Positions 1,694 to 30,815 of a stretch of 64,000 nt of DNA are shown piece after piece (position 1 is the first letter of the stretch; each line of letters begins with the position of its first letter). The DNA is from Nitrospina sp. LS_NOB (lineage in GTDB: Bacteria > Nitrospinota > Nitrospinia > Nitrospinales > VA-1). The position numbers and the translations under genes were made by a program. Location: assembly GCA_001542995.1 (NCBI GenBank), contig LFLA01000003.1, positions 78,195 through 142,194 on the forward strand. Reading direction: 5' to 3'. The notes beneath the pieces were generated by a model. It made no database searches, was not told where the DNA came from, and worked only from the letters and a program-made list of their open reading frames with translations.

Positions 1694-1724
1694 CACCATT
1701 TAGTTACCCAAAGGAGATAAAAAC

Positions 1725-1764: not shown

Positions 1765-1785
1765 TGGGATATGAAAAATCCCGGG

Positions 1786-3354: not shown

Positions 3355-3588
3355 TTGTGGGGGTTATTCTTTTCTCTCATGATTTTTGCGGTAGAGAATC
3401 GAGTGACTTATAATCATGTCATGTTCTTCACGGATCAAAATAAAGTATTGAGAATTTTTCTTTACCTCCTTTTATTTTTGATCAGTTTTCTGGTTTTTGA
3501 TTCTATAACCGTGGTGACAACGGTTTTTTTTGCGGTGGGAGCTCTGGATTATTTTTTGTTCAAGGCCTATCAGAAAGAGAGTCGTTGA
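3355..3588 (+). CDS. Possible small membrane protein (weak call)
   Basis: 77-aa ORF with two hydrophobic stretches in an AT-rich region. It has a non-ATG start and no recognisable family. Confidence 0.25.
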   Translation: MWGLFFSLMIFAVENRVTYNHVMFFTDQNKVLRIFLYLLLFLISFLVFDSITVVTTVFFAVGALDYFLFKAYQKESR

Positions 3589-3605
3589 TTCATGGAGATT
3601 TTTTG

Positions 3606-4406: not shown

Positions 4407-4420
4407 ATGCCAAAGGAATA

Positions 4421-4451
4421 AAAAAGCCGCGCTAAAAAAGCGCGGCTTTTC
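4421..4451. terminator. Bidirectional rho-independent terminator
   Basis: The sequence aaaaaGCCGCGC-taaaaaa-GCGCGGCtttt lies between convergent DUF2797 and the desaturase. Confidence 0.75.
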
Positions 4452-4474
4452 ATTAAATTTATAAGTGTGATAAG

Positions 4475-6649: not shown

Positions 6650-6650
6650 A

Positions 6651-6735
6651 CCGGCTAGCCGCCGGGGGCGATTAGCGATAGCTTTAGTTGGCTGGCAAAG
6701 AGTTGTCTCGGCTTAATGAGTTGTTGCCACTAGAG
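6651..6735. repeat. Dispersed mosaic intergenic repeat, copy R2 (between the kinase and regulator genes)
   Basis: ggctggcaaagagttgtctcggctt is the reverse form of the AAGCCGAGA...TTGCCAGC module. It ends in gccactag as in the 8.7-kb array. Confidence 0.5.
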
Positions 6736-6790
6736 AAAAACTGAATAAATAGATACTTGCTTGAAGTAGTTATGAGAATCTGGATGAGTG

Positions 6791-7504
6791 ATGAATAATA
6801 GCGGAAAAAAAATTCTAGTCGTCGAAGATGAAGTCCATCTTGCCAAGGGATTGCAGTTCAACCTGGAACGAGAGGGGTATCGGGTCACTCTCGTTGATAA
6901 CGGTCAGTCGGCTGTGGATATTCTGGGGAAAGAGGATTTTGATCTGATGATCCTCGATATCATGCTTCCCAAGTTGAGCGGGCTGGAAGTGGCCAGGCGG
7001 ATTCGCAGTACCGACATGCGCTTCCCGATTTTGATGCTGTCTGCCAAGTCCGCCGACGAAGACCGGGAACTGGGGCTCGCCGCCGGGGCCGATGATTATC
7101 TGGCTAAGCCGTTCCACCTGCCGGAACTCCTGCTCAGGGTCAAAGGAATCCTGCGCCGCTGGGAATGGTACAAGGAACCGGTGCACGATCAGGAGACTTT
7201 TCAGTTTGGCGACAGTTGGATCAACTTTGCCAGCGGCAAAGCCAAAGGCTGTTCCGGGGAATTTTACCTGACAGCAAAAGAAGCGTTACTAATGAAGCTG
7301 CTGGTGTCACAAAAGGGAAATATCGTGACCCGCGAGGAGTTATTGGAAAAAGTTTGGGGTTATGACCCGCAGACCGAAACTCGCACGGTGGATAATTTTG
7401 TAGCTCGCCTGCGCAAATATTTTGAGAAGAAACCCCAGTCCCCCAAACACATCATCACCCATCGCGAAAAAGGCTACGAGTTTAAGTCTGACCCAAAGAA
7501 ATAA
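6791..7504 (+). CDS. OmpR-family response regulator (REC + winged helix)
   Basis: KILVVEDE...DLMILDIMLP...KPF receiver, with a C-terminal trans_reg_C pattern (VTREELLEKVWGYD...RTVDNFVARLRKY). Confidence 0.9.
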   Translation: MNNSGKKILVVEDEVHLAKGLQFNLEREGYRVTLVDNGQSAVDILGKEDFDLMILDIMLPKLSGLEVARRIRSTDMRFPILMLSAKSADEDRELGLAAGADDYLAKPFHLPELLLRVKGILRRWEWYKEPVHDQETFQFGDSWINFASGKAKGCSGEFYLTAKEALLMKLLVSQKGNIVTREELLEKVWGYDPQTETRTVDNFVARLRKYFEKKPQSPKHIITHREKGYEFKSDPKK

Positions 7505-9885: not shown

Positions 9886-10057
9886 TAAAGTATTGTAAGT
9901 AGGGTGTTCCAATGTGTCAAGGCAGGGAGGGGGATGAGTGGGATTAAAACCACCCTACGAGCTCGACAAAAATTGCTGATGGTAATTGAATGCCCTGTGG
10001 GGATTGTGATAGAGTAACCCGTCCATTAAACACTGATTCTATTTAGAGGAGCTATAT

Positions 10058-10645
10058 ATGTCAGCATTAGTTGCTAAACCTGCCCCGGCTTTCACTGCTC
10101 AGGCCGTGATGCCTGATGGCAGTTTCAAGGAAATCAAACTTTCCGACTATAAGGGAAAATATGTCATTCTGTTTTTCTATCCGTTGGACTTCACCTTTGT
10201 TTGCCCGACCGAGATCATCGCTTTCAGCACCAGTATGGATGAGTTCAAGAAACGCAATACCGAAGTGCTGGGGGTTTCCATCGACAGCCATTTCTCGCAT
10301 CTGGCCTGGAGAAATACCGATCGTAAAAAGGGCGGACTCGGTGATATTGCCTATCCACTCGTTGCCGATGTGAACAAGAAAATCACCTACGATTACGGGG
10401 TTATGCATGAGGCGGGAATAGCTTTCCGTGGACTGTTCCTGATTGATAAGGAAGGTGTGGTCCAGCATCAGCTCATCAACAACCTGCCTTTGGGAAGAAA
10501 TATCGACGAAGCTTTGAGGATGATAGATGCTTTGCAGTTCCACGAGAACAATGGCGAAGTGTGCCCGGCGAACTGGAAAGAAGGCGATGATGGTATGAAG
10601 CCGGATCCTAAAGGATCGCAAGATTATTTCGGCAAACATAACTAA
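10058..10645 (+). CDS. Typical 2-Cys peroxiredoxin (AhpC/Tsa family)
   Basis: Peroxidatic motif FTFVCPTEI and resolving Cys in EVCPANW. 195 aa. Confidence 0.92.
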
Positions 10646-10750
10646 CCACTCGGCGTGGGGCCAGTGAGCAAATGCCTCAAGCCGAGAGTATTGTTGCCAG
10701 CTGCAAAAGATATTGCTCATTACCAGCGGAGGTACTCCGCCCACTCGGCG
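10646..10750. repeat. Dispersed mosaic repeat, copy R5, bracketed by 10-bp direct repeats
   Basis: CCACTCGGCG occurs at 10646-10655 and again at 10741-10750. The interior has aagccgagagtattgttgccagc and ccagcggaggtactccgc. Confidence 0.55.
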
Positions 10751-10770
10751 GTTACGTCGGTCTTGAAATT

Positions 10771-10805
10771 TGGGGGCGTTTCCAACAGGGGACGCCCCTT
10801 TTTCT
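10771..10805 (+). terminator. Rho-independent terminator of the peroxiredoxin gene
   Basis: GGGGCGT-ttccaacaggg-ACGCCCC is followed by tttttc. It lies inside the ORF-track 5' extension of surE. Confidence 0.7.
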
Positions 10806-10829
10806 ACTTACATATTCCCGAAACTCTAT

Positions 10830-11579
10830 ATGATCGTGCTTTGTAATGATGATGGATTTAACGCCGGTGGCTTGAGAACTCTATACCGGGAACTCAGTCA
10901 GGAGGATGATGTGATCATTGTTGCGCCGGAAACGGAGCAAAGCGCCATGGGCCACGCCATCACCCTGACCCAGCCGCTCAAGGTGAGGAAGGTGGAGGAG
11001 GAAGGCCGGCTCATTGGTTATGCCGTCAATGGAACCCCGGCGGACTGCGTCAAGCTGGCCATCGCCGTATTGCTGGATGAACCGCCCCGGATGGTGGTTT
11101 CGGGGATCAATCTGGGCGGGAATCTCGGCATTTGCGCGCTTTATTCCGGAACCGTTTCTGCCGCGACCGAAGCGATGATTATGGGGGTTCCCGGTATCGC
11201 AGTTTCTTTGGACACCTATGAGAAGCCGGATTTTAATCCCGCTGCAAAGTTCACCCGCAAGTTGATCAAAAAAGTCTTGGAAAAAGGATTGCCCGAGGGC
11301 GTTGTTCTGAACGTCAATATTCCACCTGTCCCTGAAGATGAAATTGCCGGGGTGGCCATCACCCGTCAAGGCAAGTCACGGGTGGTTGAATCGTTTGATC
11401 AACGGGTGGACCCGAGAAACAATACCTATTATTGGATGGCGGGTGAGATGCGGTTCGATGAAGTCGAAGAAGGTGCCGACTGCGTGATGGTGGGTAAAAA
11501 CTATATTTCGGTAACGCCGATCCATTTCGACCTCACCCATCACCCATCCATCAATGTGATCAAAGACTGGGGCCTTTGA
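10830..11579 (+). CDS. surE: 5'/3'-nucleotidase SurE
   Basis: MIVLCNDDGFNAGGL is the SurE N-terminal signature, with GINLGGNLG also present. The start is set at the ATG matching the family N-terminus. Confidence 0.9.
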   Translation: MIVLCNDDGFNAGGLRTLYRELSQEDDVIIVAPETEQSAMGHAITLTQPLKVRKVEEEGRLIGYAVNGTPADCVKLAIAVLLDEPPRMVVSGINLGGNLGICALYSGTVSAATEAMIMGVPGIAVSLDTYEKPDFNPAAKFTRKLIKKVLEKGLPEGVVLNVNIPPVPEDEIAGVAITRQGKSRVVESFDQRVDPRNNTYYWMAGEMRFDEVEEGADCVMVGKNYISVTPIHFDLTHHPSINVIKDWGL

Positions 11580-11580
11580 T

Positions 11581-11676
11581 CGGCGTAGCCGCCGTGCAGA
11601 TAGCAATAGATTGCCTGGCTGGCAACGGTGCTCTCGGCTTAAAAGCTTATTGCTTACTGGGTCCAGCGTTACGCTT
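11581..11676. repeat. Dispersed mosaic intergenic repeat, copy R6
   Basis: ggctggcaacggtgctctcggctt (reverse module) is followed by attgcttactgggtccagcgttacgct (forward module). Confidence 0.5.
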
Positions 11677-11722
11677 AAAATACAAACGGGATGGGCATAA
11701 AGCCCATCCCGTTTGTATTTTA
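11677..11722. terminator. Bidirectional terminator, perfect 16-bp stem
   Basis: TACAAACGGGATGGGC-ataaa-GCCCATCCCGTTTGTA is flanked by aaaa and tttt. It lies between convergent surE and pnp. Confidence 0.8.
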
Positions 11723-11732
11723 AGCGATTGAA

Positions 11733-13826
11733 TCAAGCCGTAGGAACTGCTTCGCGCAGGGCTTCTTTACGGCTAAGTTTGACCTTGCCTTGTTGATCCA
11801 CATCAATGACCTTGACTCTGATTTCATCACCTTCCTGAATCTCGTCACTGACATTTTTGATCCGGCGGTCGCAAATTTGCGAGATATGTACCAGGCCATC
11901 GGTGCCGGGGAAGATTTCCACGAAGGCTCCGAAGTCGACGATCTTTTTGACCTTGCCGAGATAGATTTTCCCGACCTCGACTTCCTGGACCAGGTTTTCC
12001 ACATACTCGATGGCCTTCTTGGCGGCTTCCTCATCGGCGGAGGCTATTGAAACCACCCCATCATCGTTGATGTCGATGGTGACGCCGGTTTTATCAATGA
12101 TATCGCGGATGACTTTGCCACCCGGTCCAATAACGTCGCGAATTTTATCTTTTGGAACCGTAATCTGGACGATTCTAGGAGCGTATTTGGACAGTTCATC
12201 TCTCGGGCTTTGCAGAGCTTTATCCATTTCACCGAGGATATGCATTCTCCCTTCTTTCGCTTGCTCGAGGGCTTTGCCCATGAGTTCACGGTCCAGGCCT
12301 GCGATTTTGATGTCCATTTGCAGGGCGGTGATACCGTTGCTGGTTCCCGCCACTTTAAAGTCCATATCACCTAGATGATCTTCGGAGCCGAGAATGTCAG
12401 AAAGAATCGCCACCCGGTCCCCGTCCTTAATCAGTCCCATAGCGATGCCTGCAACAGGAGCTTTGATGGGAACACCTGCATCCATCATTGAGAGCGAACC
12501 GCCACACACTGAAGCCATGGAAGAGGAACCGTTGGATTCAAGAATCTCGGAAACTATTCGGATGGTGTAAGGGAATTTTTCCCTGCTCGGCAGGATGGGT
12601 ATGAGAGCTCGTTCGGCGAGCATGCCGTGGCCTATCTCGCGTCGTCCGGGGCCGCCAATAAACTTGACCTCACCGGTACAGAATGCCGGGAAGTTGTAGT
12701 GCAGGAGAAAAGACTTGGTGCCCTTAAACTCCAAACTGTCCATTCGTTGCTCATCCACCGAAGTCCCCATGGTGGCGGTGACAAGAGCCTGGGTTTCGCC
12801 ACGGGTGAAAACAGCGGAACCGTGCACGCGCGGCAAATAGCCGACCATGATGCTGATGGGTCGGACATCGGCCAGGCCTCTACCATCTACCCGATACTGC
12901 TTGTCGAGAACAAGGTTGCGCACAATGTCTTTTTCCAAGTCATGGAAAATATCTTTTACCTCACCTTTTTTCTCTTCCTGCTCTTCAGGGCTTAATGCTT
13001 CGGTGAGATCATTTTTAATTTTCTTGATGGCATCGCTACGTTCGTGTTTGCCTGCGATTTGCATCGCATCATTCAGACTGGATGCAGCCTGTGTGTGAAT
13101 TTTGCTTTTCAGTGCTTCATCCACTTTTGGCGCTTCTACCACAAGTTTTTCCTTGCCGAGAAGTTCGCGGAGCTTGATCTGAATTTCGATCACTTTTTTA
13201 ATTCTTTCGTGACCGAACTCAAGAGCTGCCATCATATCTTCTTCACTCACTTCTTTGGCGCCGGCTTCAACCATTACGATTCCGTCGGATGTTCCCGCTA
13301 TGATCAGGTTCAGGTCACTGTTCGCCGTGTCGTCGTAAGTGGGATTAAAAATCAGCTTGCCCTCCACCCGGGAAATGCGAGCCCCGGCAATGGGGGTTTC
13401 AAACGGAATGTCAGAGATCATCAACGCGGCGGAAGCACCGGTGATGGCATTGACATCCGGGGGATTGACCTGGTCATGCGAGACAACCAGTCCGACAACC
13501 TGAGTTTCGTTTTTGAATGCTTTCGGGAACAACGGCCTGATAGGCCTGTCGATCAACCGGCAGATCAGGGTTTCGATTTCTCCGGGGCGGGCTTCCCGCT
13601 TAAAAAAACTGCCGGGGATTTTTCCGGCGGCATAGGTTTTTTCCCGATAGTCTACAGTCAGGGGAAAGAAATCGATTCCCTCCCGAGGCTCTTTAGCCAT
13701 GGTGGCGGTCACCAGCACCATGGTGTCGCCTTGCCGGACAACGACTGCGCCGCCGGCTTGCCGGGCTAGATCGCCTGCTTCCAGTGAAATTACTTTTCCA
13801 TCTATGTCTACTTCAACTTTTTCCAT
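11733..13826 (-). CDS. pnp: Polyribonucleotide nucleotidyltransferase (PNPase)
   Basis: 697 aa. Two RNase PH domains, then a KH domain and an S1 domain (GKVKKIVDFGAFVEI). Confidence 0.97.
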   Translation of the reverse strand: MEKVEVDIDGKVISLEAGDLARQAGGAVVVRQGDTMVLVTATMAKEPREGIDFFPLTVDYREKTYAAGKIPGSFFKREARPGEIETLICRLIDRPIRPLFPKAFKNETQVVGLVVSHDQVNPPDVNAITGASAALMISDIPFETPIAGARISRVEGKLIFNPTYDDTANSDLNLIIAGTSDGIVMVEAGAKEVSEEDMMAALEFGHERIKKVIEIQIKLRELLGKEKLVVEAPKVDEALKSKIHTQAASSLNDAMQIAGKHERSDAIKKIKNDLTEALSPEEQEEKKGEVKDIFHDLEKDIVRNLVLDKQYRVDGRGLADVRPISIMVGYLPRVHGSAVFTRGETQALVTATMGTSVDEQRMDSLEFKGTKSFLLHYNFPAFCTGEVKFIGGPGRREIGHGMLAERALIPILPSREKFPYTIRIVSEILESNGSSSMASVCGGSLSMMDAGVPIKAPVAGIAMGLIKDGDRVAILSDILGSEDHLGDMDFKVAGTSNGITALQMDIKIAGLDRELMGKALEQAKEGRMHILGEMDKALQSPRDELSKYAPRIVQITVPKDKIRDVIGPGGKVIRDIIDKTGVTIDINDDGVVSIASADEEAAKKAIEYVENLVQEVEVGKIYLGKVKKIVDFGAFVEIFPGTDGLVHISQICDRRIKNVSDEIQEGDEIRVKVIDVDQQGKVKLSRKEALREAVPTA

Positions 13827-13880
13827 TAATATATCTCCAGTATCTTTTTGTCCTGAGAATTCAGGGTAGGTTGGGCGCGA

Positions 13881-14150
13881 TTATCTGCGTATGCCGAGCT
13901 TTGAAATGATGCTCTGGTAACGGCTAATATCTTCTTTTTTGAGGTGATCCAATAATTTTCGTCTCTGGCTCACCAGCTTGAGTAGTCCGCGCCGGGAATG
14001 GTGGTCTTTGGAATGCGTCTTGAAATGTTCCGTCAAATAGGTAACGCGTTTTGTCAGTAATGCGATCTGCACTTCTGAAGACCCCGTGTCTTTTTCATGA
14101 ATCTTGTAATCGGTAATAACCGTAGTTTTTTGTTCTGCACTCATTGTCAT
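13881..14150 (-). CDS. rpsO: 30S ribosomal protein S15
   Basis: 89 aa with [13 protein letters not shown]...[12 protein letters not shown]...RR. Confidence 0.97.
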
Positions 14151-14188
14151 GATTTTTTCTCCAACTCGTTAAATGCGGGAAAACGATT

Positions 14189-14248
14189 GGAAAATGTTTT
14201 CGTAGAGACACACCATAACTTTATGCGGTGTCTCTGCGAAAACATTCC
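14189..14248 (-). promoter_or_regulatory. Long hairpin in the truB-rpsO spacer (truB terminator and/or rpsO leader)
   Basis: About 20-bp stem: aatgttttcgTagagacac pairs with gtgtctctGcgaaaacatt, with a single U-G pair. It lies 39 nt upstream of the rpsO ATG. Confidence 0.45.
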
Positions 14249-14281
14249 AACCTTCTTCCGTCAAATTCCAAATGTTTAGTA

Positions 14282-15223
14282 CTAAATTAAAACACGTTTT
14301 AATTTAAACGCGATATCTTCTGGTGCCAGCCGACTAAATAGATCCTGATCGACAATAGGCTCAACGATGGCGAGTACCTTGTCACTGTCGTTGCAAACAC
14401 GTAACATCATCCCTGGTTTGAATTCCCCTGGATAAGCTTTCAGGGAAAATTTGGGCAGGGCGTTGCCATTGGCAATAGACTCTATGAAATCATCATTGAC
14501 ACGGACTTTAGGAAGAAATTCCAAAGCTTTTTCCACAGGAAAAAGCACTCCGGCCAGATTTCCGTTATTGTTTGCGGTTTCCAATGCTTCGGGAGTGATT
14601 GAACAGTTTTGGGCAAACACTCCCACCCGTTTCCGGATCAACCCGGACATATGCGCACCGCAACCCAAACTTTGCCCAATATCATGGCACAGGGTGCGGA
14701 TGTAAGTTCCCGCAGAACAATGCACTTCAAATTCTACCCGATTTTCATCCATATTAATAAAATCAATGGAATAAAAATGGACTGAGACGGGTTTCCTCTC
14801 GATAGTAATACCATTTCTGGCTAATTTGTAAAGAGGAATTCCCTTGCTTTTCTTTGCCGAGTACATGGGAGGCACCTGTTTTTGCTCCCCTTTAAAGCTC
14901 ATGAGCAGGTTCCGGATCTGGATCTCGGTGACCTCGGAGGGGTCTCTCTCAAAAAGAGTCTTGCCGGTGGAGTCCTGAGTGTCGGTGGCCGCTCCCAGTG
15001 TCATAGTACATTGATAATGCTTGGATAAAGGGCTTAGGAACCGAATAATCCGGGTCGATTGGTTGAGGCAGATTGGCAAAATACCCTCCGCCATGGGGTC
15101 CAGGGTGCCTATATGCCCCGCTTTTTTTACGCCCAGAATCCTCTTTACCGTATGAACCATGGAAAACGAAGTAGGGCCAGACGGTTTATAGAGGTTGACC
15201 ACCTGATTCAGAGTGCAGTCCAT
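14282..15223 (-). CDS. truB: tRNA pseudouridine(55) synthase TruB
   Basis: VVNLYKPSGPTSF...GHIGTLDPMAEGILPI contains the catalytic Asp motif. The start is taken at an internal ATG (MDCTLNQ). It overlaps the rbfA end. Confidence 0.9.
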   Translation of the reverse strand: MDCTLNQVVNLYKPSGPTSFSMVHTVKRILGVKKAGHIGTLDPMAEGILPICLNQSTRIIRFLSPLSKHYQCTMTLGAATDTQDSTGKTLFERDPSEVTEIQIRNLLMSFKGEQKQVPPMYSAKKSKGIPLYKLARNGITIERKPVSVHFYSIDFINMDENRVEFEVHCSAGTYIRTLCHDIGQSLGCGAHMSGLIRKRVGVFAQNCSITPEALETANNNGNLAGVLFPVEKALEFLPKVRVNDDFIESIANGNALPKFSLKAYPGEFKPGMMLRVCNDSDKVLAIVEPIVDQDLFSRLAPEDIAFKLKRVLI

Positions 15224-15548
15224 TGAGTATCCTTGATATCTTTTCAACATGATCGGCATTATCATCCCGCCGAAATTCCAGTTCAGGAAGATACCTTAAA
15301 TAAAGGTTCTTGCCCAACGCATTACGGATGAAGCCTTTAGCATTGATCAGTCCATCCAGGGTATCCTTTTTTTCTTGTTCAGAGCCCATCACGCTGACAA
15401 ATATTTTAGCGTGTTTGAGATTGTCAGAAACTTCCACCTTGGTGATGGTGGTAAAGCCTATCCGGGGATCTTTCAATCCACTCTGGACCAGCTTTGATAT
15501 TTCTTCAAGAAGTAGTTCCTGAATTCTAAGAGAACGCTTGAACCGCAT
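15186..15548 (-). CDS. rbfA: Ribosome-binding factor A
   Basis: MRFKRSLRIQELLLEEISKLV...DPRIGFTTITKVEVSDNLKHAKIFVS matches the family. Confidence 0.9.
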   Translation of the reverse strand: MRFKRSLRIQELLLEEISKLVQSGLKDPRIGFTTITKVEVSDNLKHAKIFVSVMGSEQEKKDTLDGLINAKGFIRNALGKNLYLRYLPELEFRRDDNADHVEKISRILNGLHSESGGQPL

Positions 15549-20504: not shown

Positions 20505-20541
20505 CTAAAAAAAAATAAAAAAAGCGGGCTCAAAGCCCGCG
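20505..20541 (-). terminator. Rho-independent terminator downstream of proS
   Basis: On the minus strand GCGGGCT-ttg-AGCCCGC is followed by a run of about 16 nt that is almost all T. Confidence 0.7.
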
Positions 20542-20631: not shown

Positions 20632-22341
20632 TTATAAGTCTTTTAAAATATTAGGGATATCCTCAATGACCTGGGGGTAGGGGCGTAGATCAGACTCATT
20701 GGTCTTGCGGATTTTGATCTCAACTTGTCCGGCAGAAAGGTTTTTGGGCCCCACAATGATTTGCAGGGGAATTCCTATCAGGTCAGCATCCTTCAATTTG
20801 ACCCCCAGCCGATCTGACCGGTCATCGAGCAGGGTTTCCAGTCCGGTTTCCTGGAGCCGGTTATAAATAGTGTCGCAGGCAGTTTTTAATTCATCATTGG
20901 AATAGTTAACCGGGATGATAATGACTTGAAAAGGAGCCAGGTTCCGAGGCCAGACAATTCCTCTGTCGTCATGATTTTGTTCAATGGCGGCGGCGGCGGT
21001 GCGCCCGACTCCGATTCCATAGCAGCCCATGACCATTGCATTTTCCTTGCCTTGCTGGTCCAGATAAGCCGCTTTCATTGCCGAGGAATATTTGGTGCCA
21101 AGAATGAAAATGTGGCCAACTTCGATTCCGCGTTTGACCTGGTATTTTCCGTCCTCGCAATGCGGGCAGGGGTCGTTGGCCTTGACGGTTCTGAGATCGC
21201 CGAATTGTTTGATTTTCAAGTCCCGTTTGACTTGAACACCGGTAAAGTGTGTGGAGGGTTTGTTGGCGCCGGTAACAAAATCATGCATGGCGGAAATTTC
21301 ACAGTCCGCATAAACTGGAAGATGGAGTCCCACGGGCCCGACATACCCGCAATGCAGTTCGGGATGTTTGGAGATGGCTTCCTCGCCTGCCGGTTGCAAC
21401 CATTCACAACCGATCAGGTTTTTCATTTTGACGGGACTGATTTCATGGTCACCGCGAACCAGCCCTGCTACCAGTCCGTTCTCATTTTCAAGAAGAATGG
21501 TTTTTACGATTTGCCGGGCAGGCAGGTTGAGAAACCCAGCTACATCCTCCACTGATTTTTTTCCGGGCGTCTCCACTTCTTTTAGATCCTGTGGTGCGGC
21601 AGGAGGTGGGGAGGGGGAAGGTGGTTTCGATTTCGCAAGTTCCAGGTTCGAGGCCTGGCCGCACGACTCGCAAAAACCTATTTCATCTTCTCCTGAATCG
21701 GCGAGTACTGCGAACTCATGCGAAAAGCTGCCCCCGATAGTTCCCGGGTCGGCCTGAACCTGCTTGAAGTCCAAACCGCACCTGTTGAAAATATTGGTGT
21801 AGGCCTGCGCCATCTGGTTGTAAGTATGTTGGGTGTCCTTTTCATCGGCGTGAAAACTGTAGGCATCTTTCATCATGAATTCCCGCCCGCGCATGATGCC
21901 AAACCGAGGCCGAACTTCGTCGCGAAACTTGGTCTGAATCTGATACAGCAAAATGGGTAGCTGGCGATAGGACCTGACTTCCTTTCTCACGATATCGGTG
22001 ATGACCTCCTCATGAGTGGGGCCGTAGCAGAATTCCCGATTATGCCGGTCTTTAATCCGCAATAATTCCTTGCCATAAAAATCCCAGCGCTTGCTTTCTA
22101 CCCACAATTCAGCAGGTTGAATGCTTGGCAGAAAAACTTCCTGTCCGTCGATTTTATTCATCTCTTCGCGGATGATTTGTTCCACCTTCCTTAAGACCCG
22201 AAGTCCCAATGGCAGGATGGAGTAAATTCCCGAGGCAAGCTGCCGGATCATTCCTGCGCGTACCATGAGCTTGTGGCTGATGACTTCTGCATCAGCAGGA
22301 GATTCTTTAAGTGTTGGAATGAAAAGTTTTGAAAAACGCAT
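20632..22341 (-). CDS. proS: Proline--tRNA ligase (bacterial type with editing insertion)
   Basis: 569 aa with class II motifs (RPRFGIMRGREFMMKDAYSF, GCYGIGVGR) and an INS domain. Confidence 0.97.
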   Translation of the reverse strand: MRFSKLFIPTLKESPADAEVISHKLMVRAGMIRQLASGIYSILPLGLRVLRKVEQIIREEMNKIDGQEVFLPSIQPAELWVESKRWDFYGKELLRIKDRHNREFCYGPTHEEVITDIVRKEVRSYRQLPILLYQIQTKFRDEVRPRFGIMRGREFMMKDAYSFHADEKDTQHTYNQMAQAYTNIFNRCGLDFKQVQADPGTIGGSFSHEFAVLADSGEDEIGFCESCGQASNLELAKSKPPSPSPPPAAPQDLKEVETPGKKSVEDVAGFLNLPARQIVKTILLENENGLVAGLVRGDHEISPVKMKNLIGCEWLQPAGEEAISKHPELHCGYVGPVGLHLPVYADCEISAMHDFVTGANKPSTHFTGVQVKRDLKIKQFGDLRTVKANDPCPHCEDGKYQVKRGIEVGHIFILGTKYSSAMKAAYLDQQGKENAMVMGCYGIGVGRTAAAAIEQNHDDRGIVWPRNLAPFQVIIIPVNYSNDELKTACDTIYNRLQETGLETLLDDRSDRLGVKLKDADLIGIPLQIIVGPKNLSAGQVEIKIRKTNESDLRPYPQVIEDIPNILKDL

Positions 22342-22386: not shown

Positions 22387-24120
22387 TTATGCGCTAAAAG
22401 ATTTTTGAGCAAGAGCAATATGATCTGCGTTATGGATTTCCAGCCAGCCTTTGTGGATCTCCATATAGTGGACGGCGAAACCCCGATCGATCATTTCCTG
22501 AATGAGGTCGGTGAAATTCAGTTTGGAAATATCCTCTGATTCCTGAAAGCGGCCGGTAAAATTTTTGAGCACATCGTTATAGGTTTCGAGAAACTGCTCG
22601 GCGCCAGTTTTGCTGAACCGGGCAAGACCTATGAACTCGTGGGTTGCGGTTTCCGGGTTTATCTTATTGCCAATCTTTGCCACGGTATTTTCACTGATGA
22701 AGCGGATTTCCCGGCGCGTCGGCTTGTAGCGGTTCCTGGTGATAATGTAGTCGAGAATGTTTCCCTTTTCCGGCTGGTGATACTGGGTTGAATTGTCGGC
22801 AACGAGAACAATGTCTTCCTTGCACTCTGTCAGCTTGCTGAGAATCTGGTCCTCCATGAGGATGTCGGAATACAACATGATGAATCCATTGGTCATTTTT
22901 TCTTTCGCAACGACCAGTGAATTGAGCACGGACCCTTTCTGGTAGTCGGGGTTCTCTAGAATATTGATGCCCTCTGCATGCAGGTGGTCCTTGCCATACC
23001 CTGCGATGAGTGTGATGTCTGCGAGATTGGCGTTACTCAGGGCTTGAATTTGATGGTCGAGAAGGGTCTTGCCGCAAATTTCGAGCATGGCCTTGGGCTT
23101 GCCGTTCAATATTTGCTTGAAAACAGGATCTTCCCCGGCGGCAGGAATAATCACCGGAATATTGGTCGTCTGTTCATCCTGTTGGTCTTTTTCCTTAACG
23201 TCCAGAAACCCGACGGTTTTAAAAATTTCCCGGACGGGTGTGCATAAAGGATCGGCTTCCAGAGATCTCTGATTGCGAAGTAGGGTCTTTGCAGTTTCCG
23301 TCATCGCTTGGTAGGCGCTGCGTAAAAGATGATTGGCATAAATGACGATGCTGAATCCGGCGGCGCTCAGTTCGTCCTCGGTGATTCGGTTATAAGTGGT
23401 GGGCACGCACACCAGTGGTTTGTTCAATTGGAGGTTTTTTAAAATAACCTGGTACTTTTCAGCAAACTCCAGGATTTCATCCGGGCTTTTGGACTTGGAG
23501 TGGATCATGATCCCATCGACTCCAGCTTGCAGGTATTGCGTGGCCCTGTTGAGTGCGTCTTCCATGGGTTTTCCGGATATGAGGCTTTCAATGCGGGCGA
23601 TAATCATAAACTCACTGCTTTTCTGAACACTTTTTCCTCGCCGGATTTTCTGGGCGAAGACTTCCGGTTCTTGCAGGTTTTGCTGGACCCCAGCCTCCAG
23701 GCTATTGCGTTTTGGAAAAACCTTATCTTCTATAATTACCGCAGATACACCCGCCCGCTCAAGTTTGGAGACGGTGTATTCGAAGGAGTTCGCGCCCCCT
23801 CCCGTATCTCCGTCAACGATCATGGGTTTGTCGGTCACAGCAAGAATTTCGTTGATGGTATGGAGCCGGGAGTCGAAGGTAACGACCTCGATATCGGGGT
23901 GGCCTTTCGAGGCCGAGTCGGTGAGACTGCTTTCCCAGATGGCATCGAATTGGCGGACAACGGTTTGTCTATCCGAATCTCCAGTCACTTCAACTGTATT
24001 GGCGATGATGCCGCTCAACCCATTATGAGCTTCAAGCACCCGCACTGTTTTTCCTTCTTCCAGCAGGGCCTTGAGTTTTCCCCGGCGATGTTCGGGAAGA
24101 ATAGTGTTAAGAAGGGTCAT
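22387..24120 (-). CDS. pepM: Phosphoenolpyruvate mutase fused to a C-terminal nucleotidyltransferase domain
   Basis: The N-terminal 300 aa have the ICL/PEPM fold with EDKVFPKRNS (EDKX5NS, aa 131-140). Residues 320-577 are an NTP-transferase fold (IPVIIPAAGE...GKPKAMLEI). Confidence 0.85.
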   Translation of the reverse strand: MTLLNTILPEHRRGKLKALLEEGKTVRVLEAHNGLSGIIANTVEVTGDSDRQTVVRQFDAIWESSLTDSASKGHPDIEVVTFDSRLHTINEILAVTDKPMIVDGDTGGGANSFEYTVSKLERAGVSAVIIEDKVFPKRNSLEAGVQQNLQEPEVFAQKIRRGKSVQKSSEFMIIARIESLISGKPMEDALNRATQYLQAGVDGIMIHSKSKSPDEILEFAEKYQVILKNLQLNKPLVCVPTTYNRITEDELSAAGFSIVIYANHLLRSAYQAMTETAKTLLRNQRSLEADPLCTPVREIFKTVGFLDVKEKDQQDEQTTNIPVIIPAAGEDPVFKQILNGKPKAMLEICGKTLLDHQIQALSNANLADITLIAGYGKDHLHAEGINILENPDYQKGSVLNSLVVAKEKMTNGFIMLYSDILMEDQILSKLTECKEDIVLVADNSTQYHQPEKGNILDYIITRNRYKPTRREIRFISENTVAKIGNKINPETATHEFIGLARFSKTGAEQFLETYNDVLKNFTGRFQESEDISKLNFTDLIQEMIDRGFAVHYMEIHKGWLEIHNADHIALAQKSFSA

Positions 24121-24401
24121 GACTGAGCTCCAGCGATTTTATCGGCTTGAATTTTTTCTCGTATCCAGTCAGCCACATAGATATTGTCGAGATCAAATTT
24201 TTTCAGCGTATTTAAAATAACGATCACGTGCTCTTCGTCCGGAAGATTTTTATCCAGAATAATGAGGTCCTCGCCATTGAGTTTGCAGTAGCCGCCTTGT
24301 ATGGCAAACTCCTGATCGTTGAGGTTGGAGATTTCAATTTTTATGGATAACTTATCTGCGGCTTCCTTGAGGTCCTGAATCCGGCTCTCAATGTTTTGCA
24401 T
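24117..24401 (-). CDS. Hypothetical 94-aa protein, translationally coupled to pepM
   Basis: Its stop overlaps the pepM start (ATGA), and it lies 14 nt downstream of rseP. I recognise no family. Confidence 0.55.
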   Translation of the reverse strand: MQNIESRIQDLKEAADKLSIKIEISNLNDQEFAIQGGYCKLNGEDLIILDKNLPDEEHVIVILNTLKKFDLDNIYVADWIREKIQADKIAGAQS

Positions 24402-24415
24402 AGTAGAAGATGTTT

Positions 24416-25786
24416 TCAGGTAATGATTCGCATAATATCATTATAAAACGCGAACACCATGAGGCTGAGCAACATGAATATCCCAACTTGCTGTGCCCGT
24501 TCCTGGTTTCTTTCACTGACAGGTTTGCCTTTGAGAATTTCTATCAGGAAAAAGAAAATATGGCCGCCATCCAGAACCGGAATTGGCAACAGGTTGAGTA
24601 GCCCCAGGTTGATGCTCAAAAGTGCGGTCAACCGAACCAGCTCACTAAGGCCTTGTTCGGTATATTCCCCGTAAATTTGAAAAATCAGGATAGGGCCGCC
24701 GATGGAGTCTGCGGGGATGGAGCCCATAACCATTTTTTTGATGCTAACAGCGATCAGGTAAATCAGCCGCCTTGTTTCTTCAATGGCCCTTTTAAGGGCT
24801 CCGAAAACGCCGTATCTTTCCGTTGCCATTTCTCCGGCCATGCCGATGCCGAGCAGGCCCACTTCTGCACTTTTGCCTTCAAGGTCTTTGACAACCTTGG
24901 ATTCGGGTGTCAGTGTGGTTACGATTTCTGTTCCGTTTCTGAGGACTCTGAAGGTCAGTTCTTGGCCAGGCTTGTCGATGGCCGCTGTCTTCAGGTCTCC
25001 CCAGCCAAAAATAATAGTATTGTCCACCGAAACCAAAATGTCGCCTTCTTGAATTCCAGCACGGTCAGCCGGGGAGCCTTCTTTAACATGAAACACATTT
25101 CGTACCAGCGGCGTGATTCCGATCAGTCCAACGTTTTCTTTGTCACCAAAAAGATCGCTGATTTCCTCGGAGATGGGGGTGATGGGAACATGGGCGATGC
25201 TTCCGGAGCTTCTTTCCACCTGGAAATCCAGGGAACGGCCTGGAGACTTATGCACAATTTTCTGTAGTTGTTCCCAATAAAGTATTTTTTCATCGCCAAT
25301 GGCTAAAATGCGGTCGCCGGTTTGAAGCCCCGCAACCAGTGCCGGAGACTCATCCTTAACCGTGCCAACAACAGGAGCCAATGCGGGAACCCCTACCAGA
25401 TAGACGCAATAATAAATGGCAATGGCAAAAAGAATATTGAAGAGCGGACCCGCGAAGGCAATGGCCAGCCGGTCCAGAACCGGAGCTGCTGCAAAGGACC
25501 CCTGTTCGTCTGTGGTTTCTTCCCCGACTTCTTCCCCTTTCATTTTTACGTAGCCGCCAAGGGGAATCCAGGCGAGGAGATATTCGGTGCCTCCGCGTGT
25601 GAAGCTCACAATTTTAGGCCCAAAACCGAGGGAAAACTTTTCCACCACGACGCCCACCTTCCGGGCAACGAGAAAATGCCCCAGTTCATGGACGAAGATG
25701 AGAGCGGCCAGGCCACCCAGAAAAGCCAGCATTTTGATCCCGAAACTGAGGATTGCATCTAAAGAAAATATTGAAAGTTCAAACAT
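24416..25786 (-). CDS. rseP: RIP metalloprotease RseP (site-2 protease)
   Basis: HELGHFLVAR (HExxH) in TM1, two PDZ-like segments and a C-terminal NLLPIPVLDGGH motif. Confidence 0.92.
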   Translation of the reverse strand: MFELSIFSLDAILSFGIKMLAFLGGLAALIFVHELGHFLVARKVGVVVEKFSLGFGPKIVSFTRGGTEYLLAWIPLGGYVKMKGEEVGEETTDEQGSFAAAPVLDRLAIAFAGPLFNILFAIAIYYCVYLVGVPALAPVVGTVKDESPALVAGLQTGDRILAIGDEKILYWEQLQKIVHKSPGRSLDFQVERSSGSIAHVPITPISEEISDLFGDKENVGLIGITPLVRNVFHVKEGSPADRAGIQEGDILVSVDNTIIFGWGDLKTAAIDKPGQELTFRVLRNGTEIVTTLTPESKVVKDLEGKSAEVGLLGIGMAGEMATERYGVFGALKRAIEETRRLIYLIAVSIKKMVMGSIPADSIGGPILIFQIYGEYTEQGLSELVRLTALLSINLGLLNLLPIPVLDGGHIFFFLIEILKGKPVSERNQERAQQVGIFMLLSLMVFAFYNDIMRIIT

Positions 25787-25791
25787 GAGAT

Positions 25792-26472
25792 TTAAGGAGT
25801 TTGTGTGTAATCCAAAACCTCCACGCCGGGTGGAGTCTTGAGTTGGAATTGTTCTTCCGGGATTTCCCGGTTAACCCGAATACGGGTGAAGCGAATTTCT
25901 GTTTTGTTCCCTAATTTATCATACACGGTCGATCCGGTGATTTGGAAGTTTTTCTTGTCAGCTAGAAGGACCAGTCTTGCCATCCCCTGCTCCTCGTTTT
26001 TTGGGACAAGGGTGACAACAATATTCTGGCTTTCCTCAATCACACTTTCAACATTAAAGGCATGGGTCAACTTTCCCTTTCCTGCCAGAAAAAGCGCTGG
26101 TGTGTTGGAAGAGTAGATGCTTTCAACCGGTACCTTGGTGGCTTGCTCCTCGTCAGGGACATAAAGCCAAAGGGTTTTCTCATTGCTGATTAAAATTTGT
26201 GTGTCCGGAGCCCCGTAGACCCATCTCATTTTTCCGGGTTTCTTGATTTGCACCGTGCCTTTGACGCTTTGGGTCTGGTCCATCATTTTGATGTAAGACT
26301 GCTGGGTGAAGTCGGCTTCAAAGGTAACAACCTTTTCATATTGGTTTTGAATGGCATCCAGCGCTTTCTGTTTGGAGGTCTCCGCAAAGAGAACCCCCGG
26401 CAGTGTCAGGACTGCGAATAAAGCTAAAAGTTTTTGCAGGAGGTTCAAGAAAGTTTTCTCTCTATTTGTCAT
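25792..26472 (-). CDS. lolA: Outer-membrane lipoprotein carrier LolA-like
   Basis: Signal peptide, then FEADFTQQS...GTVQIKKPGKMRWVY...LWLYVPDEEQ. The start is taken at MTNREK, so it overlaps the purN end by 11 nt. Confidence 0.8.
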   Translation of the reverse strand: MTNREKTFLNLLQKLLALFAVLTLPGVLFAETSKQKALDAIQNQYEKVVTFEADFTQQSYIKMMDQTQSVKGTVQIKKPGKMRWVYGAPDTQILISNEKTLWLYVPDEEQATKVPVESIYSSNTPALFLAGKGKLTHAFNVESVIEESQNIVVTLVPKNEEQGMARLVLLADKKNFQITGSTVYDKLGNKTEIRFTRIRVNREIPEEQFQLKTPPGVEVLDYTQTP

Positions 26473-27079
26473 GCAGGACCCTTCGGCCCGAAAGGGCCAG
26501 CCTGTCTTCAAGGATCAGTCGAATAGCTTCGAGGTAAATAATGTGTTCCTGTTCAAGAATTCTTTCGGAAAGGGAAGCCTCATCGTCATCATCAATAATG
26601 GGAACCACCGCTTGCAAAATGATAGGGCCGCCATCCACTTCCTCGTTGACATAATGCACCGTGCATCCTGAAAACCGGGCTCCATGCTCCAAGGCTCGTT
26701 TTTGCACGTTTAATCCGGGAAACGCGGGAAGTAACGAGGGGTGAATATTAATGATTCGACCTGAAAAAGTTTCGATAAAATGTTTGCCCAGAACACGCAT
26801 GTAGCCGGCGAGACAAATCAGATTAACGGATTTGGATTGGATTTGTTCTACCAGGCCCTGCTCGTAGCTGTTTCGGTCCGGAAAAGATTTAGGGTCCAGA
26901 AAAAGTCCCTCAAGACCATGCTTGCGTGCTCGTTCAAGAGCGTAGGCATCTTTCACATTACTAATCACTATGGCAATTTCGGCCTGCAGGTCATTTTTTT
27001 CAATACTGTCGATGATGGCCTGCAGGTTAGAACCTCGTCCTGAAACCAAAACGGCGAGTTTAAATTTGTCGGGTGCCAT
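26462..27079 (-). CDS. purN: Phosphoribosylglycinamide formyltransferase
   Basis: KLAVLVSGRGSNLQAII...NIHPSLLPAFPG...GCTVHYV are present. Confidence 0.93.
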   Translation of the reverse strand: MAPDKFKLAVLVSGRGSNLQAIIDSIEKNDLQAEIAIVISNVKDAYALERARKHGLEGLFLDPKSFPDRNSYEQGLVEQIQSKSVNLICLAGYMRVLGKHFIETFSGRIINIHPSLLPAFPGLNVQKRALEHGARFSGCTVHYVNEEVDGGPIILQAVVPIIDDDDEASLSERILEQEHIIYLEAIRLILEDRLALSGRRVLHDK

Positions 27080-27386: not shown

Positions 27387-27567
27387 TCCGGTATCTCTTC
27401 CATTTTGCTAATTATAAAATCGTGAATGTTGAGCCTTTTATTGGAAATACTTCCACTGTTTTAACACGTTGGTGATGTTTTTTCTTGAAGAAATAGTTTG
27501 TTTGCCCTGTGGATACTTTATTTGTCTAATGGGTATCCGGTAGAAATTTGTGCTACTTTTGCAAGTC

Positions 27568-28597
27568 ATGAAAAACTTTCCTTTGCCCAGACAGCTTCCC
27601 TTCATCCTTTGGATTTTTTTAACAGGAGGGGTGGGGTCTGCATTTGCGGATGTGGACGAAGCATTTTTGCAATCTGTTCTTGAGGGAGACCGTAAAGAGG
27701 CGGAGTCTCTGCTTGAACGGGGTGCCGATATTGAAACCCGTACTAAAAGAGGCAGCACGGCTTTGATCGTTGCTGCGGCCCAAAAGCATACTTCCCTGCT
27801 GGAGTTTTTGTTAAAGCGGGGTGCCAATGTCAACGCCCGGAACCGCTATGATGACACCGCTTTATTATTATGTGCAATGGTAGGTGATGTGAAGTGTATG
27901 GAATTGGTCATCGCCAAGGGAGGTGATGTCAACGTAAAGAATATGCTTGGCTGGAGTCCCCTTTCGAGAGCCGCGAGATATGGTCACCTATCGGCACTTA
28001 GATTCCTGATCAAGCGGGGTGCTAAGATCGATATTCGTTTGAACGATGGCGCAATCCCGCTAATCATTTCCGTGGGAGAACAACATTCCGGAGCAATTCA
28101 TTTATTGTTAGAAAATGGGGCAACGTCTCTTATGATGGCGGCCGAGCGAGGCAGAATGGAAATGGTCCGGCTTTTGATCGAACATAGGGTGGACATTAAT
28201 GCTAAAAGCCGAAATGGCGCTACTCCATTAATTAGCGCATCCGCTGGTGGGCATGAAGAAATCGTAAAACTTCTTCTCCAGCAAGGGGCGAAACAGGATG
28301 CCGCGATTGCCAATGGTTCAACATCTTTAATGGTTGCGACCGAACGGGGTCATTTGCCTACCGTTGAGGTCCTGCTACGTCATGGCGCAAATATCCAGGC
28401 ACGCAGTAAAAGAGGGTGGCAGCCTTTATGGTTGCTGCGGCAGGGGGGGGCACACAAAAATTATCCGGCTTTTTCTGGAGAAGGGGGCAAGCACAAAGCC
28501 GGTGACTAAAAGCGGGTGGACCGCACTCAAGGTTGCGCTTCAATTAGACAGGCATGCAGTGGTTCGGCAACTTAAACTGGCGGGAGCCAAAGAATAA
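27568..28597 (+). pseudogene. Secreted ankyrin-repeat protein, reading frame broken near the 3' end
   Basis: A signal peptide (MKNFPL...GSAFA) is followed by about 8 ANK repeats. Repeat homology moves from frame 1 to frame 3 (VAAFMVAAAGGG) at GGG 28414-16, then to frame 2 (GHTKIIRLFLEKGA...) at the G8 run 28443-50. Confidence 0.75.
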
Positions 28598-28619: not shown

Positions 28620-30815
28620 TCAGTTTTTCTGAAGCAGGTTTTCCTGGATGTTTTGAAGAAGGCCTATATTCTGGGTGTGTCCTGATCTGTAGGCTTTGAC
28701 GTGCCCCCGTATGGGTTTTCCCAGTAAATAAAAATCCCCGAGTATATCCAGAATTTTATGTCGGGGGAACTCATCTTTAAAGCGGAGTTTGGTGTTCAAG
28801 ACTTTTTTGTCGCCAAGCAATATAAAGTTGTCAAGTTTGCCTCCAGACGCATAACCCATTTTGGTCAATTGCGCCACCTCTTCCATGAAGCCGAAGGTTC
28901 TTGCCGGGGCAATCTCCTTTTTAAAACTTTCACCTCCTTTGAACTCATATGTGTAGTCCTGAATGCCAATTGGTTCCGGATATTCCATGTGGTAACTGAC
29001 GCTAAAGTTATCGCTGGGTTCGATGGAAATATACGGCTCACCTTGCTCCTTGTTGCCAAAAGTGTAGCTTTTATCGATCACGATTTCTTCATAAAAACCA
29101 TCTTGGTCTTCGAACTCTCCATCTTCTATAAGGTCACAAAAATCTTTTGCGGAACCATCCATCACCGGTGCTTCATCGCCGATTTTAATGAGCAGGTTGG
29201 TGATCCGGTACATGTGAAGAGCCGCCATAATATGTTCAATGGTTCCGACCGAGACCCTGTCTTTACGTAAGCGGGTGGCATAATCTGTGGACTGGACATT
29301 TTCCAGCCGGGCGGGAATGGTTTTGCCGGTGGAAATATCCCCAAATATGATTCCGCTTCCCGGAGGCATGGGTTGCAGAATCAATCCTGTTTTAATACCC
29401 GAATGTAAACCGCTTCCGCATAACACCACACTGCGCTTGAGGGTGCGCTGTTGGTGGCGGTATCCACTATTGATTTTTTCTGGATCTGGTATTTCAATGG
29501 AATGGAGCACAATTTTTTCTTTAAGTTGTTTTTTTTCTGTGCTCAGAGATTTGCAGGTTTTTTTGATGTCCCAGTTGTTGCGCTTAAGGTGGTGAATAAT
29601 GAAATGCTTTTCCCAAATCAGTTCTGCTTCCTGAAGAGACCCGGCCTGATCAATATCGTTAATTTCTATTTTGGGTTGCCAGATTTCCGAAGGCAGATCC
29701 TGGGCAGTTATTTTTTTCTGGTTAGCGCCGATAAGAATCAATTTATTCAGCACAGATATCAACTCTTTCACATTTTCGGGCCAGGTATAACGGCATAGAG
29801 CGGCCAGGGCGTCCTCGCCTATTTCAGGGATGGAAGTTTTCTGTGTTTGCCGGATTTCATCCAGATAATCTTTTGCCATAGCGGGGATATTCACGGCATA
29901 GTTGCGCAAAGGCGGAACAAATAAAGTGGAGTCTTTGAACGCGTTCAGTAATGCAGGATGAAACTGGCCTTTTGCGGACAGGGCTGCCAAATCTTTAGTG
30001 GATGACGCAAAAATCCGGATGGGTATCAATCCTGAATGGGAGCCCGCCGATTGCGAACCGTTGGAGTGCAGGGCTTCCGCGAGTTTTTCCTGCAGGCCTT
30101 TGCTCAATGATTCAATATTGCTGAGATAGATTACTTTTTCCTCGCCAGCCTGGTTGGAAGCACGGGTATTTTTCCGGGGTCGCTTAAAAAGTTGGGAGTG
30201 AATGGCCCGTTCCTGGCGAAACGAGCAATTTATTTTAACGAAGGAACGGTCGCTTTTACTGCTCTGCCCATGGATGGCCTGGGCGATGAACTCTTTGCCG
30301 GTCCCATTCTCGCCACGCACTAAAACCGGTTTCATATGCCGCGAAAACTCTTTCACCGCCTTTTTCACTTCCACCATGGACTCAAAACAAAGAGGGAGTT
30401 CCCCTCTGGAGGAAGGCGTCAGTTTTTCCTCAGCCTTGAATTTCGAGCGTTTGTTGCCCAACACTTCTGCAATCGATTGGGTGATCCGGTCCAGGGAAAA
30501 AGGTTTTTCTATAAAGTCCTGAGCCCCGAGTTTGGTTGCCTTGACCGCCGTGTCAATGGTTCCGTGGCCGGACATAATCAGGACTTCAATTTCAGGGTGA
30601 TAAGATTTTACCGTTTTTAAAACTTCAATTCCGTCCATCCCCGGCAACCAGATATCCAGTAAAACCAGGTCGGGGGGGTCTGCTTGGATAATTTCCAATG
30701 CTTCAATGCCATCCCCTGTCTCGGCGACTTCATAACCTTCATCTGCGAGAATTCCGGTCAAGGAACTGACAATATTTTTTTCGTCATCGACGATGAGAAT
30801 ACGTGCTTTAGGCAA
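28620..30815 (-). CDS. lpxC: Fusion protein: receiver domain + degenerate NtrC-type AAA+ domain + Fis-like HTH remnant + UDP-3-O-acyl-GlcNAc deacetylase (LpxC)
   Basis: Continuous 731-aa ORF. REC has DD10-11, D54 and K104. Walker A GENGTGKE is kept but GAFTGA and Walker B are lost. The LpxC part runs from QRTLK (aa 456) and has E527/H528, T640, H686/K687/D690 and H713. Confidence 0.85.
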   Translation of the reverse strand: MPKARILIVDDEKNIVSSLTGILADEGYEVAETGDGIEALEIIQADPPDLVLLDIWLPGMDGIEVLKTVKSYHPEIEVLIMSGHGTIDTAVKATKLGAQDFIEKPFSLDRITQSIAEVLGNKRSKFKAEEKLTPSSRGELPLCFESMVEVKKAVKEFSRHMKPVLVRGENGTGKEFIAQAIHGQSSKSDRSFVKINCSFRQERAIHSQLFKRPRKNTRASNQAGEEKVIYLSNIESLSKGLQEKLAEALHSNGSQSAGSHSGLIPIRIFASSTKDLAALSAKGQFHPALLNAFKDSTLFVPPLRNYAVNIPAMAKDYLDEIRQTQKTSIPEIGEDALAALCRYTWPENVKELISVLNKLILIGANQKKITAQDLPSEIWQPKIEINDIDQAGSLQEAELIWEKHFIIHHLKRNNWDIKKTCKSLSTEKKQLKEKIVLHSIEIPDPEKINSGYRHQQRTLKRSVVLCGSGLHSGIKTGLILQPMPPGSGIIFGDISTGKTIPARLENVQSTDYATRLRKDRVSVGTIEHIMAALHMYRITNLLIKIGDEAPVMDGSAKDFCDLIEDGEFEDQDGFYEEIVIDKSYTFGNKEQGEPYISIEPSDNFSVSYHMEYPEPIGIQDYTYEFKGGESFKKEIAPARTFGFMEEVAQLTKMGYASGGKLDNFILLGDKKVLNTKLRFKDEFPRHKILDILGDFYLLGKPIRGHVKAYRSGHTQNIGLLQNIQENLLQKN

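Follow-up and report, generated by a model that had tools for sequence, protein, structure and literature searches.

The window analysed here, a 64,000-nucleotide (nt) stretch of contig LFLA01000003.1 from Nitrospina sp. LS_NOB (positions 78,195 to 142,194 of the forward strand), carries on its minus strand a gene, pepM, predicted to encode a phosphoenolpyruvate (PEP) mutase fused to a nucleotidyltransferase (NTase). The fusion protein is ordinary for its family; what is unusual is its orphan context in a housekeeping operon, which recurs across the phylum Nitrospinota. The locus comprises the following features, in window coordinates.

22387..24120, minus strand: pepM-NTase fusion gene, 577 residues (aa), PEP mutase plus MobA/LicC-like nucleotidyltransferase (open reading frame (ORF) list; PF13714 and PF12804 matches; TIGR02320; orthologues)
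23206..24120, minus strand: PEP mutase domain, aa 1-305, which aligns with the solved PEP mutases 5UNC and 1M1B
23701..23730, minus strand: EDKVFPKRNS, the EDKX5NS motif of true PEP mutases, aa 131-140, read in the alignment
22387..23163, minus strand: nucleotidyltransferase domain, aa 320-577 plus the stop codon (PF12804 at aa 340-449; best PDB relative LicC, 1JYK)
24117..24401, minus strand: small ORF, 94 aa, conserved protein with no function assigned (ORF list; homologues; ratio of nonsynonymous to synonymous substitution rates, dN/dS)
24416..25786, minus strand: rseP, site-2 protease of the M50 family with PDZ domains, the upstream neighbour (Pfam; synteny)
25792..26511, minus strand: lolA-like gene (PF03548), whose start is possibly further in (called as 218 aa in Logan contig L001)
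26462..27079, minus strand: purN (Formyl_trans_N), first gene of the conserved string (Pfam; synteny)
20632..22341, minus strand: proS, 45 nt downstream of pepM (ORF list; Pfam; junction read from sequence)
20524..20540, minus strand: terminator-like hairpin GCGGGC...GCCCGC with a T run, after proS (consensus scan only)

An earlier, sequence-only reading of this DNA had called the protein a true PEP mutase from its EDKX5NS motif, and profile searches with PF13714, TIGR02320 and PF12804 all gave matches. PF13714 (PEP_mutase) matched aa 16-280 in Pfam with an E-value of 1.5e-54 and 239 of its 240 profile positions covered, and the NCBIfam equivalog model for PEP mutase, TIGR02320, scored 357 bits against a cut-off of 319.55, while its sister models fell far under theirs (phosphonopyruvate hydrolase, 167 vs 374; prpB, 104 vs 354; CPEP mutase, 45 vs 420 bits). 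These domain and equivalog scores are far beyond chance, and the top PDB matches of the N-terminal domain were solved PEP mutases. Mutase-domain motifs are near-invariant among 45 aligned sequences, all of which carry EDK(V/I)FPKRNS. Alignment to the Mytilus edulis enzyme (1M1B) disposed of the concern that a key catalytic residue might be missing despite the motif, since S46, L48, D58, D85, D87, E114, K120, N122, S123, R159 and H190 (Mytilus numbering) are all kept.

The mutase domain has the same fold and catalytic residues as 1M1B and 5UNC, but these are single-domain proteins, whereas the Nitrospinota protein is fused, has a 13-residue insert at aa 42-54 and carries Ser in place of G47 (Mytilus numbering), in the motif WESSL. 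The same serine is found in relatives within canonical phosphonate clusters, and hence is a subfamily trait and not a defect. Identities as phosphonopyruvate hydrolase, which has T where EDKX5NS has N, or as methylisocitrate lyase were rejected because of the low model scores and the N kept in the motif. The median dN/dS of the mutase domain among Nitrospinota orthologues was 0.055, indicating strong purifying selection. By its model scores and motifs the 577-aa protein is a true PEP mutase, whose N-terminal domain would, by homology, turn PEP into phosphonopyruvate.

The C-terminal part, which had been read as a nucleotidyltransferase fold, matched PF12804 (NTP_transf_3) in Pfam with 38.1 bits versus a cut-off of 27 over aa 340-449. 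Its best solved relative was LicC (1JYK, E 6.7e-8), and the match to the characterised PntC (6PD1/6PD2) was not significant (E 0.054, 16.3 bits). The fused domain is predicted to have the NTase fold in common with LicC (1JYK/1JYL) and PntC (Tde1415) and retains the Lys of PK, but only ~120 residues could be aligned and the G-x-G-(T/S)-R...P-K signature is incomplete: the domain reads IPAAGEDPV..., and its glycine-rich nucleotide-binding loop, IPAAGEDPVFKQILNGKPKAM, lacks the Arg of GxGTR (loop AAGEDPVFKQILNGKPKAM). An AlphaFold2 (AF2) model of the domain, built from a shallow alignment, had a predicted local distance difference test score (pLDDT) of only 40.3 and was discarded.

That the fusion is in itself an unusual feature was not borne out. 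According to Rice et al. (2019; PMC6697681), 59.5% of true PEP mutase (Ppm) enzymes are fused to another domain, and the commonest architecture is fusion to PF12804, found in 33%, or about one third, of all Ppm enzymes. Domain architecture, domain order and EDKX5NS are the same in that type and in the Nitrospinota fusion, but the cases in Rice et al. lie in phosphonate clusters with ppd (phosphonopyruvate decarboxylase), AEPT (aminoethylphosphonate (AEP) transaminase) or an alcohol dehydrogenase, often with a second NTase, whereas the Nitrospinota gene is a lone gene in a housekeeping string, phylum-wide. Li & Horsman (2022; PMC8942020) likewise describe Ppm as 'often' fused to PntC. Beyond a 589-aa 'Phosphoenolpyruvate mutase' listed without comment in a supplementary table of the N. 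gracilis genome paper, no paper tying Nitrospinota to pepM or phosphonopyruvate was found in the literature searched.

Direct reading of the sequence confirmed the coordinates and gene junctions given earlier. The rseP stop and the small-ORF ATG are separated by 14 nt, the small-ORF stop and the pepM start overlap as ATGA (-4 nt), and the pepM stop is 45 nt from the proS ATG, with a GGAG located 8-12 nt before the pepM ATG, within the 3' end of the small ORF. The 14-nt spacer ahead of the small ORF (24402-24415, aaacatcttctact) contains no Shine-Dalgarno-like sequence, whereas pepM is preceded by its GGAG; translation of the small ORF may depend on coupling to that of rseP. In a consensus scan, the minus strand from rseP to proS had no terminator-like site, and the only strong one of the string was the hairpin just past proS, likely the end of the transcription unit. 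Given the three spacings, the GGAG and the position of this hairpin, an operon is a reasonable reading, drawn purely from spacing and pattern matches. The earlier placement of pepM inside the lolA-rseP...proS string thus stands, and the gene is probably co-transcribed with the lolA-rseP-small ORF unit and with proS.

The arrangement is conserved well beyond this genome. The best 120 homologues were 68-95% identical and nearly all 573-587 aa long, and those bearing names were phosphoenolpyruvate mutases of Nitrospina, Nitrospinaceae or Nitrospinota; orthologues of 68-96% identity have this annotation in Nitrospinota metagenome-assembled genomes (MAGs). A look-up of the exact 577-aa product gave no entry, yet Logan contig L001 encodes it at 100% identity. 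A scan of species-representative genomes yielded 43 loci, 39 of them with the Nitrospinota arrangement and several on complete chromosomes. Mapping by tblastn gave the order purN-lolA-rseP-small ORF-pepM-proS-rimP-nusA wherever the contig was long enough; the order is unchanged in the more divergent members and is kept in about 44 Nitrospinota loci overall. One Nitrospinota clade (L034-L038 and L040) has 2-7 kb inserted between pepM and proS, which separates these two genes and leaves the small ORF-pepM overlap intact. The one insert that was read, in L038 (11897-18238), has genes for a GAF protein, a SulP transporter, an NhaD-like antiporter, SPFH and NfeD proteins on the opposite strand and no phosphonate genes, which rules it out as a site of ppd. 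Across the loci sampled, the Nitrospinota have pepM-NTase as a fixed, single gene flanked by the lolA-rseP-small ORF unit and proS.

Two contigs with other labels, L013 (an Opitutia MAG) and L040 (a Nitrospirae MAG), also carry the Nitrospinota-type small ORF-pepM-proS string, with pepM 92% and 69% identical, respectively, to that of the window; they are probably mis-binned or mislabelled.

Conversion of PEP to phosphonopyruvate is unfavourable, its equilibrium lying towards PEP. Pfam scans of all other sizeable ORFs of the window revealed no TPP (thiamine pyrophosphate) decarboxylase, aminotransferase, iron-containing alcohol dehydrogenase (Fe-ADH) or LicD-type gene, these ORFs being phosphate transport, two-component, tRNA/ribosome, envelope and assorted genes. 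In a tblastn search of 63 sequences (853 kb), genuine Ppd and Fe-ADH from the closest relatives outside the phylum, used as queries, matched neither the window nor any Nitrospinota locus, even at E<=1. The earlier observation that no coupling enzyme is visible locally is thereby upheld for the window and extended to ±10 kb in about 44 Nitrospinota loci. Of the phosphonopyruvate-consuming enzymes with which Ppm genes are associated (Ppd, PalB, VlpB and FrbC), none occurs in the window, and no Ppd occurs in those flanks.

The closest relatives outside Nitrospinota, in bacteria of the candidate phyla radiation (CPR) and in Woesearchaeota, are 47-52% identical over their full length, and all three with readable flanks have ppd adjoining pepM. 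In L046 (Peribacteria, 49% identity; 9989-15425), pepM-NTase is followed by a TPP enzyme, whose homologues are named phosphonopyruvate decarboxylase, an Fe-ADH and a second NTase that stands alone, and a polysaccharide flippase gene lies upstream; L047 (Falkowbacteria; 10001-14668) has the same four-gene order, and L045 (Woesearchaeota; 1-4997) has ppd next to pepM. These proteins have the WESSL, EDK and IHSK motifs and the degenerate NTase loop in common with the Nitrospinota fusion, but their genes are adjacent to ppd (in L046 and L047 also to the PhpC-like Fe-ADH and the second NTase) and lack the small ORF, rseP and proS as neighbours. The ppd adjacency, the two full operons and the flippase in L046 show that Ppd is the usual partner of this subfamily and that its product goes into glycan decoration. 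The Nitrospinota gene has thus been separated from partners kept adjacent elsewhere.

The L046 and L047 operons resemble the hydroxyethylphosphonate (HEP)-type phosphonoglycan pathway. With operons this compact and with the ppd of L045, phosphonate decoration seems to be present in these reduced-genome lineages.

The explanation we favour, and consider fairly probable, is that the Nitrospinota protein is an active bifunctional Ppm-PF12804 enzyme of a split pathway that supplies a cytidine monophosphate (CMP)-phosphonate to the envelope, the 94-aa protein being a separate, older partner of the lolA-rseP unit. In this scheme, phosphonopyruvate formed by the N-terminal domain must be removed because the mutase reaction is unfavourable, most likely by a decarboxylase plus a reductase or transaminase whose genes lie in another part of the genome; an NTase would then activate the resulting phosphonate (HEP or AEP) as its CMP conjugate, which would be attached to an envelope glycan or lipid, conceivably as a constitutive surface decoration. 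For its part, pepM would have become translationally coupled to an older lolA-rseP partner that is not a dedicated PepM subunit. A split pathway is favoured on two grounds: in other organisms this subfamily demonstrably acts together with Ppd, and the dispersal of genes is the simpler event.

Several points weigh against this explanation. In about 44 Nitrospinota loci, the ±10 kb around pepM contains neither Ppd nor Fe-ADH, and the window has neither of them, nor an aminotransferase; the rest of the pathway in Nitrospinota is an assumption. A search with the CPR Ppd returned no Nitrospinota-labelled protein among its best 120 matches (52-98% identical, from other taxa), a depth too shallow to speak to genome-wide presence, and no phosphonate from Nitrospina was found in the literature searched. 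As a rule, phosphonate genes form clusters, and Ppd-less neighbourhoods are rare: ~13% of ppm neighbourhoods defied assignment to a known branch point, and few of these lacked Ppd (Li & Horsman, 2022; PMC8942020). Finally, the fused NTase lacks the GxGTR Arg that stand-alone NTases keep, which makes its catalytic competence and substrate uncertain.

This last point leads to the best surviving alternative, namely that the fused NTase is not the phosphonate activator but is catalytically degenerate or has an assembly or regulatory role, a real PntC-type cytidylyltransferase being encoded elsewhere together with ppd. The Arg is missing in every fused NTase domain, in Nitrospinota and CPR alike, whereas within the CPR clusters the NTases of the stand-alone kind have the canonical signature (LASGSGNRLLPLTQDRPK and LASGTGSRLKPLTENLHK; SGSGNRL...PK in L046 and SGTGSRL...HK in L047), and canonical clusters hold both kinds of NTase (L046, L047; PMC6697681). 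Set against this are the median dN/dS of 0.068 for the domain among Nitrospinota orthologues, again strong purifying selection, and its many invariant residues, including K26, P27 and K28 (domain numbering). Fosfomycin biosynthesis offers in Fom1 a precedent for an active Ppm-fused cytidylyltransferase (PMC6697681), but with an N-terminal PF01467 domain and a full biosynthetic cluster, while the Nitrospinota fusion has a C-terminal PF12804 domain. Moreover, the KPK lysines are kept by the Nitrospinota fused domains and lost in the CPR relatives, which would be compatible with activity where no second NTase adjoins. On balance we regard a degenerate or non-catalytic NTase domain as rather unlikely.

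Comparison of the stand-alone NTases (L046, 14727-15425; L047, 13967-14671) with the fused domain (window, 22387-23163) shows that two NTase classes share these clusters, one stand-alone with canonical GxGxR...PK and one Ppm-fused without the Arg and, in CPR, also without the Lys. The Nitrospinota locus has the fused class only, and the role of this class is apparently uncharacterised.

The 94-aa ORF had been put forward as a candidate accessory factor of PepM. In favour of a dedicated accessory or regulatory subunit, the small ORF is directly upstream of pepM in 42 of the 42 Nitrospinota loci examined and overlaps it in 36 (ATGA in 30, a 17-nt overlap in four and a 1-nt overlap in two, the other six having gaps of 6-229 nt), it is under purifying selection (dN/dS 0.12), and the pepM ribosome-binding site lies in its 3' end. 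An apparent in-frame fusion of the two genes in L021 was ruled out by translation, there being a stop 18 nt before the pepM ATG. Yet the link is lost outside the phylum, where the CPR and archaeal relatives of the PepM fusion have no small ORF, and the family is broad: besides 164 close homologues, an exhaustive search found 236 cluster representatives, all of about 85-135 aa. Seven contigs of a groundwater/metagenome lineage have (rhomboid-)lolA-rseP-small ORF, with an RseP ~50% identical to that of the window, followed by unrelated or opposite-strand genes, and pepM, proS and Ppd are absent over distances of up to 10 kb; further homologues adjoin genes for an alpha/beta hydrolase, an HD protein or an AP-endonuclease-fold protein. 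The small protein also diverges faster than PepM (40% versus 72% identity between L002 and the window).

Its homologues and its dN/dS mark the 94-aa ORF as a real gene, kept by purifying selection and not specific to pepM, and the accessory-factor proposal is weakened accordingly. In the simplest history, the lolA-rseP-small ORF unit came first and pepM was placed behind it later. For the small protein, a link to the rseP unit or a role as a general factor is more likely than one as a PepM subunit, and we consider a dedicated subunit improbable; the tight coupling in Nitrospinota leaves a minority chance that the protein was recruited to some role with PepM.

The small protein was modelled by AF2 with a pLDDT of 83.5 in an alpha-beta3-alpha2 topology (helix, three strands, two helices), and its G37, C39 and R81 are invariant or near-invariant. 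It belongs to no Pfam or NCBIfam family and had no significant structural neighbour in Foldseek, the weak matches being PrpR (6CZ6), IrrE (3DTI) and MATCAP at E 0.14 or worse. PF06114 was matched by four of 59 family members (best E 0.0094). With these sub-threshold matches and no HEXXH motif in the family, an ImmA/IrrE (Peptidase_M78) zincin-like fold is only a lead.

A bolder alternative to the split pathway is that Nitrospinota have no Ppd at all and that phosphonopyruvate is drawn off through a new sink, either by the fused NTase, which might form CMP-phosphonopyruvate in a reaction driven by pyrophosphate hydrolysis, or by an enzyme of central metabolism, such as the malate dehydrogenase of the reductive tricarboxylic acid cycle (to phosphonolactate) or an aspartate-type aminotransferase (to phosphonoalanine). 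The orphan state of pepM in about 44 genomes, the strong constraint on both domains and the retention of the KPK lysines, which are lost precisely in those CPR relatives that own a second NTase, would all fit, and Li & Horsman proposed a malate-dehydrogenase-type reduction for another neighbourhood without Ppd (PMC8942020). The nearest relatives, however, use Ppd, dispersed pathway genes are common in small genomes, and the absence of Ppd refers to the window and to the ±10 kb flanks of pepM in the other loci. We know of no enzyme that acts on phosphonopyruvate by nucleotidyl transfer. A new sink is accordingly, in our view, quite improbable, slightly more so than a dedicated subunit role for the small protein.

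Least likely of all, and to our mind very improbable, is that the enzyme runs in reverse, so that phosphonates taken up by the cell (phosphonoalanine, or AEP once transaminated and oxidised) would enter central metabolism as PEP, since, even with an equilibrium on the PEP side, a PhnDEC uptake and phosphonate degradation system reported in Nitrospina-like genomes (PMC5029188) and no forward-pulling enzyme nearby, the conserved NTase fusion would have no role in such a route, the protein falls within the biosynthetic PepM equivalog with EDKX5NS, its relatives are in biosynthetic clusters with a flippase, and the neighbourhood has no enzyme to generate phosphonopyruvate either.

A large part of the dissolved organic phosphorus in the sea consists of phosphonates, about whose sources in deep water little is known; Nitrospinota are the main marine nitrite oxidisers and abundant mesopelagic nitrifiers. 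If the Nitrospinota gene is active, this abundant group joins the likely phosphonate producers. Its orphan context provides a clean test case between a pathway split over the genome and consumption of phosphonopyruvate by an unrecognised route; were there truly no Ppd, PepM-NTase would be a self-sufficient module: phosphonate biosynthesis would gain a new early branch point, and the deep ocean a new source of phosphonates. The interest thus lies in an orphan pepM-NTase that is strongly conserved throughout the phylum and built into a housekeeping operon, and its importance hinges on the absence of Ppd, or of any known sink, genome-wide.

Other genes around the locus deserve brief mention. At 28620-30815 (minus strand), the window encodes a 731-aa protein composed of a response-regulator receiver, a sigma-54-activator AAA domain, which by eye lacks the GAFTGA loop, and a C-terminal LpxC (lipid A deacetylase), an unusual architecture in which a signalling module is joined to the enzyme of the committed step in lipid A synthesis. 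The same protein adjoins purN-lolA-rseP in divergent Nitrospinota (L002, 4548-6719; L051, 127-2115; L054, 3008-5221). Between its gene and purN, on the opposite strand (27550-28509, plus strand), lies a gene for a 319-aa ankyrin-repeat protein with a hydrophobic N-terminus, which is also in L001 and has a counterpart at this place in neither L002 nor L054. About 20 kb from pepM, the segments 1-1693 and 5687-7504 (both plus strand) encode a PhoU-like DUF47 protein, a PHO4/PitA transporter and a histidine kinase/OmpR-type regulator pair.

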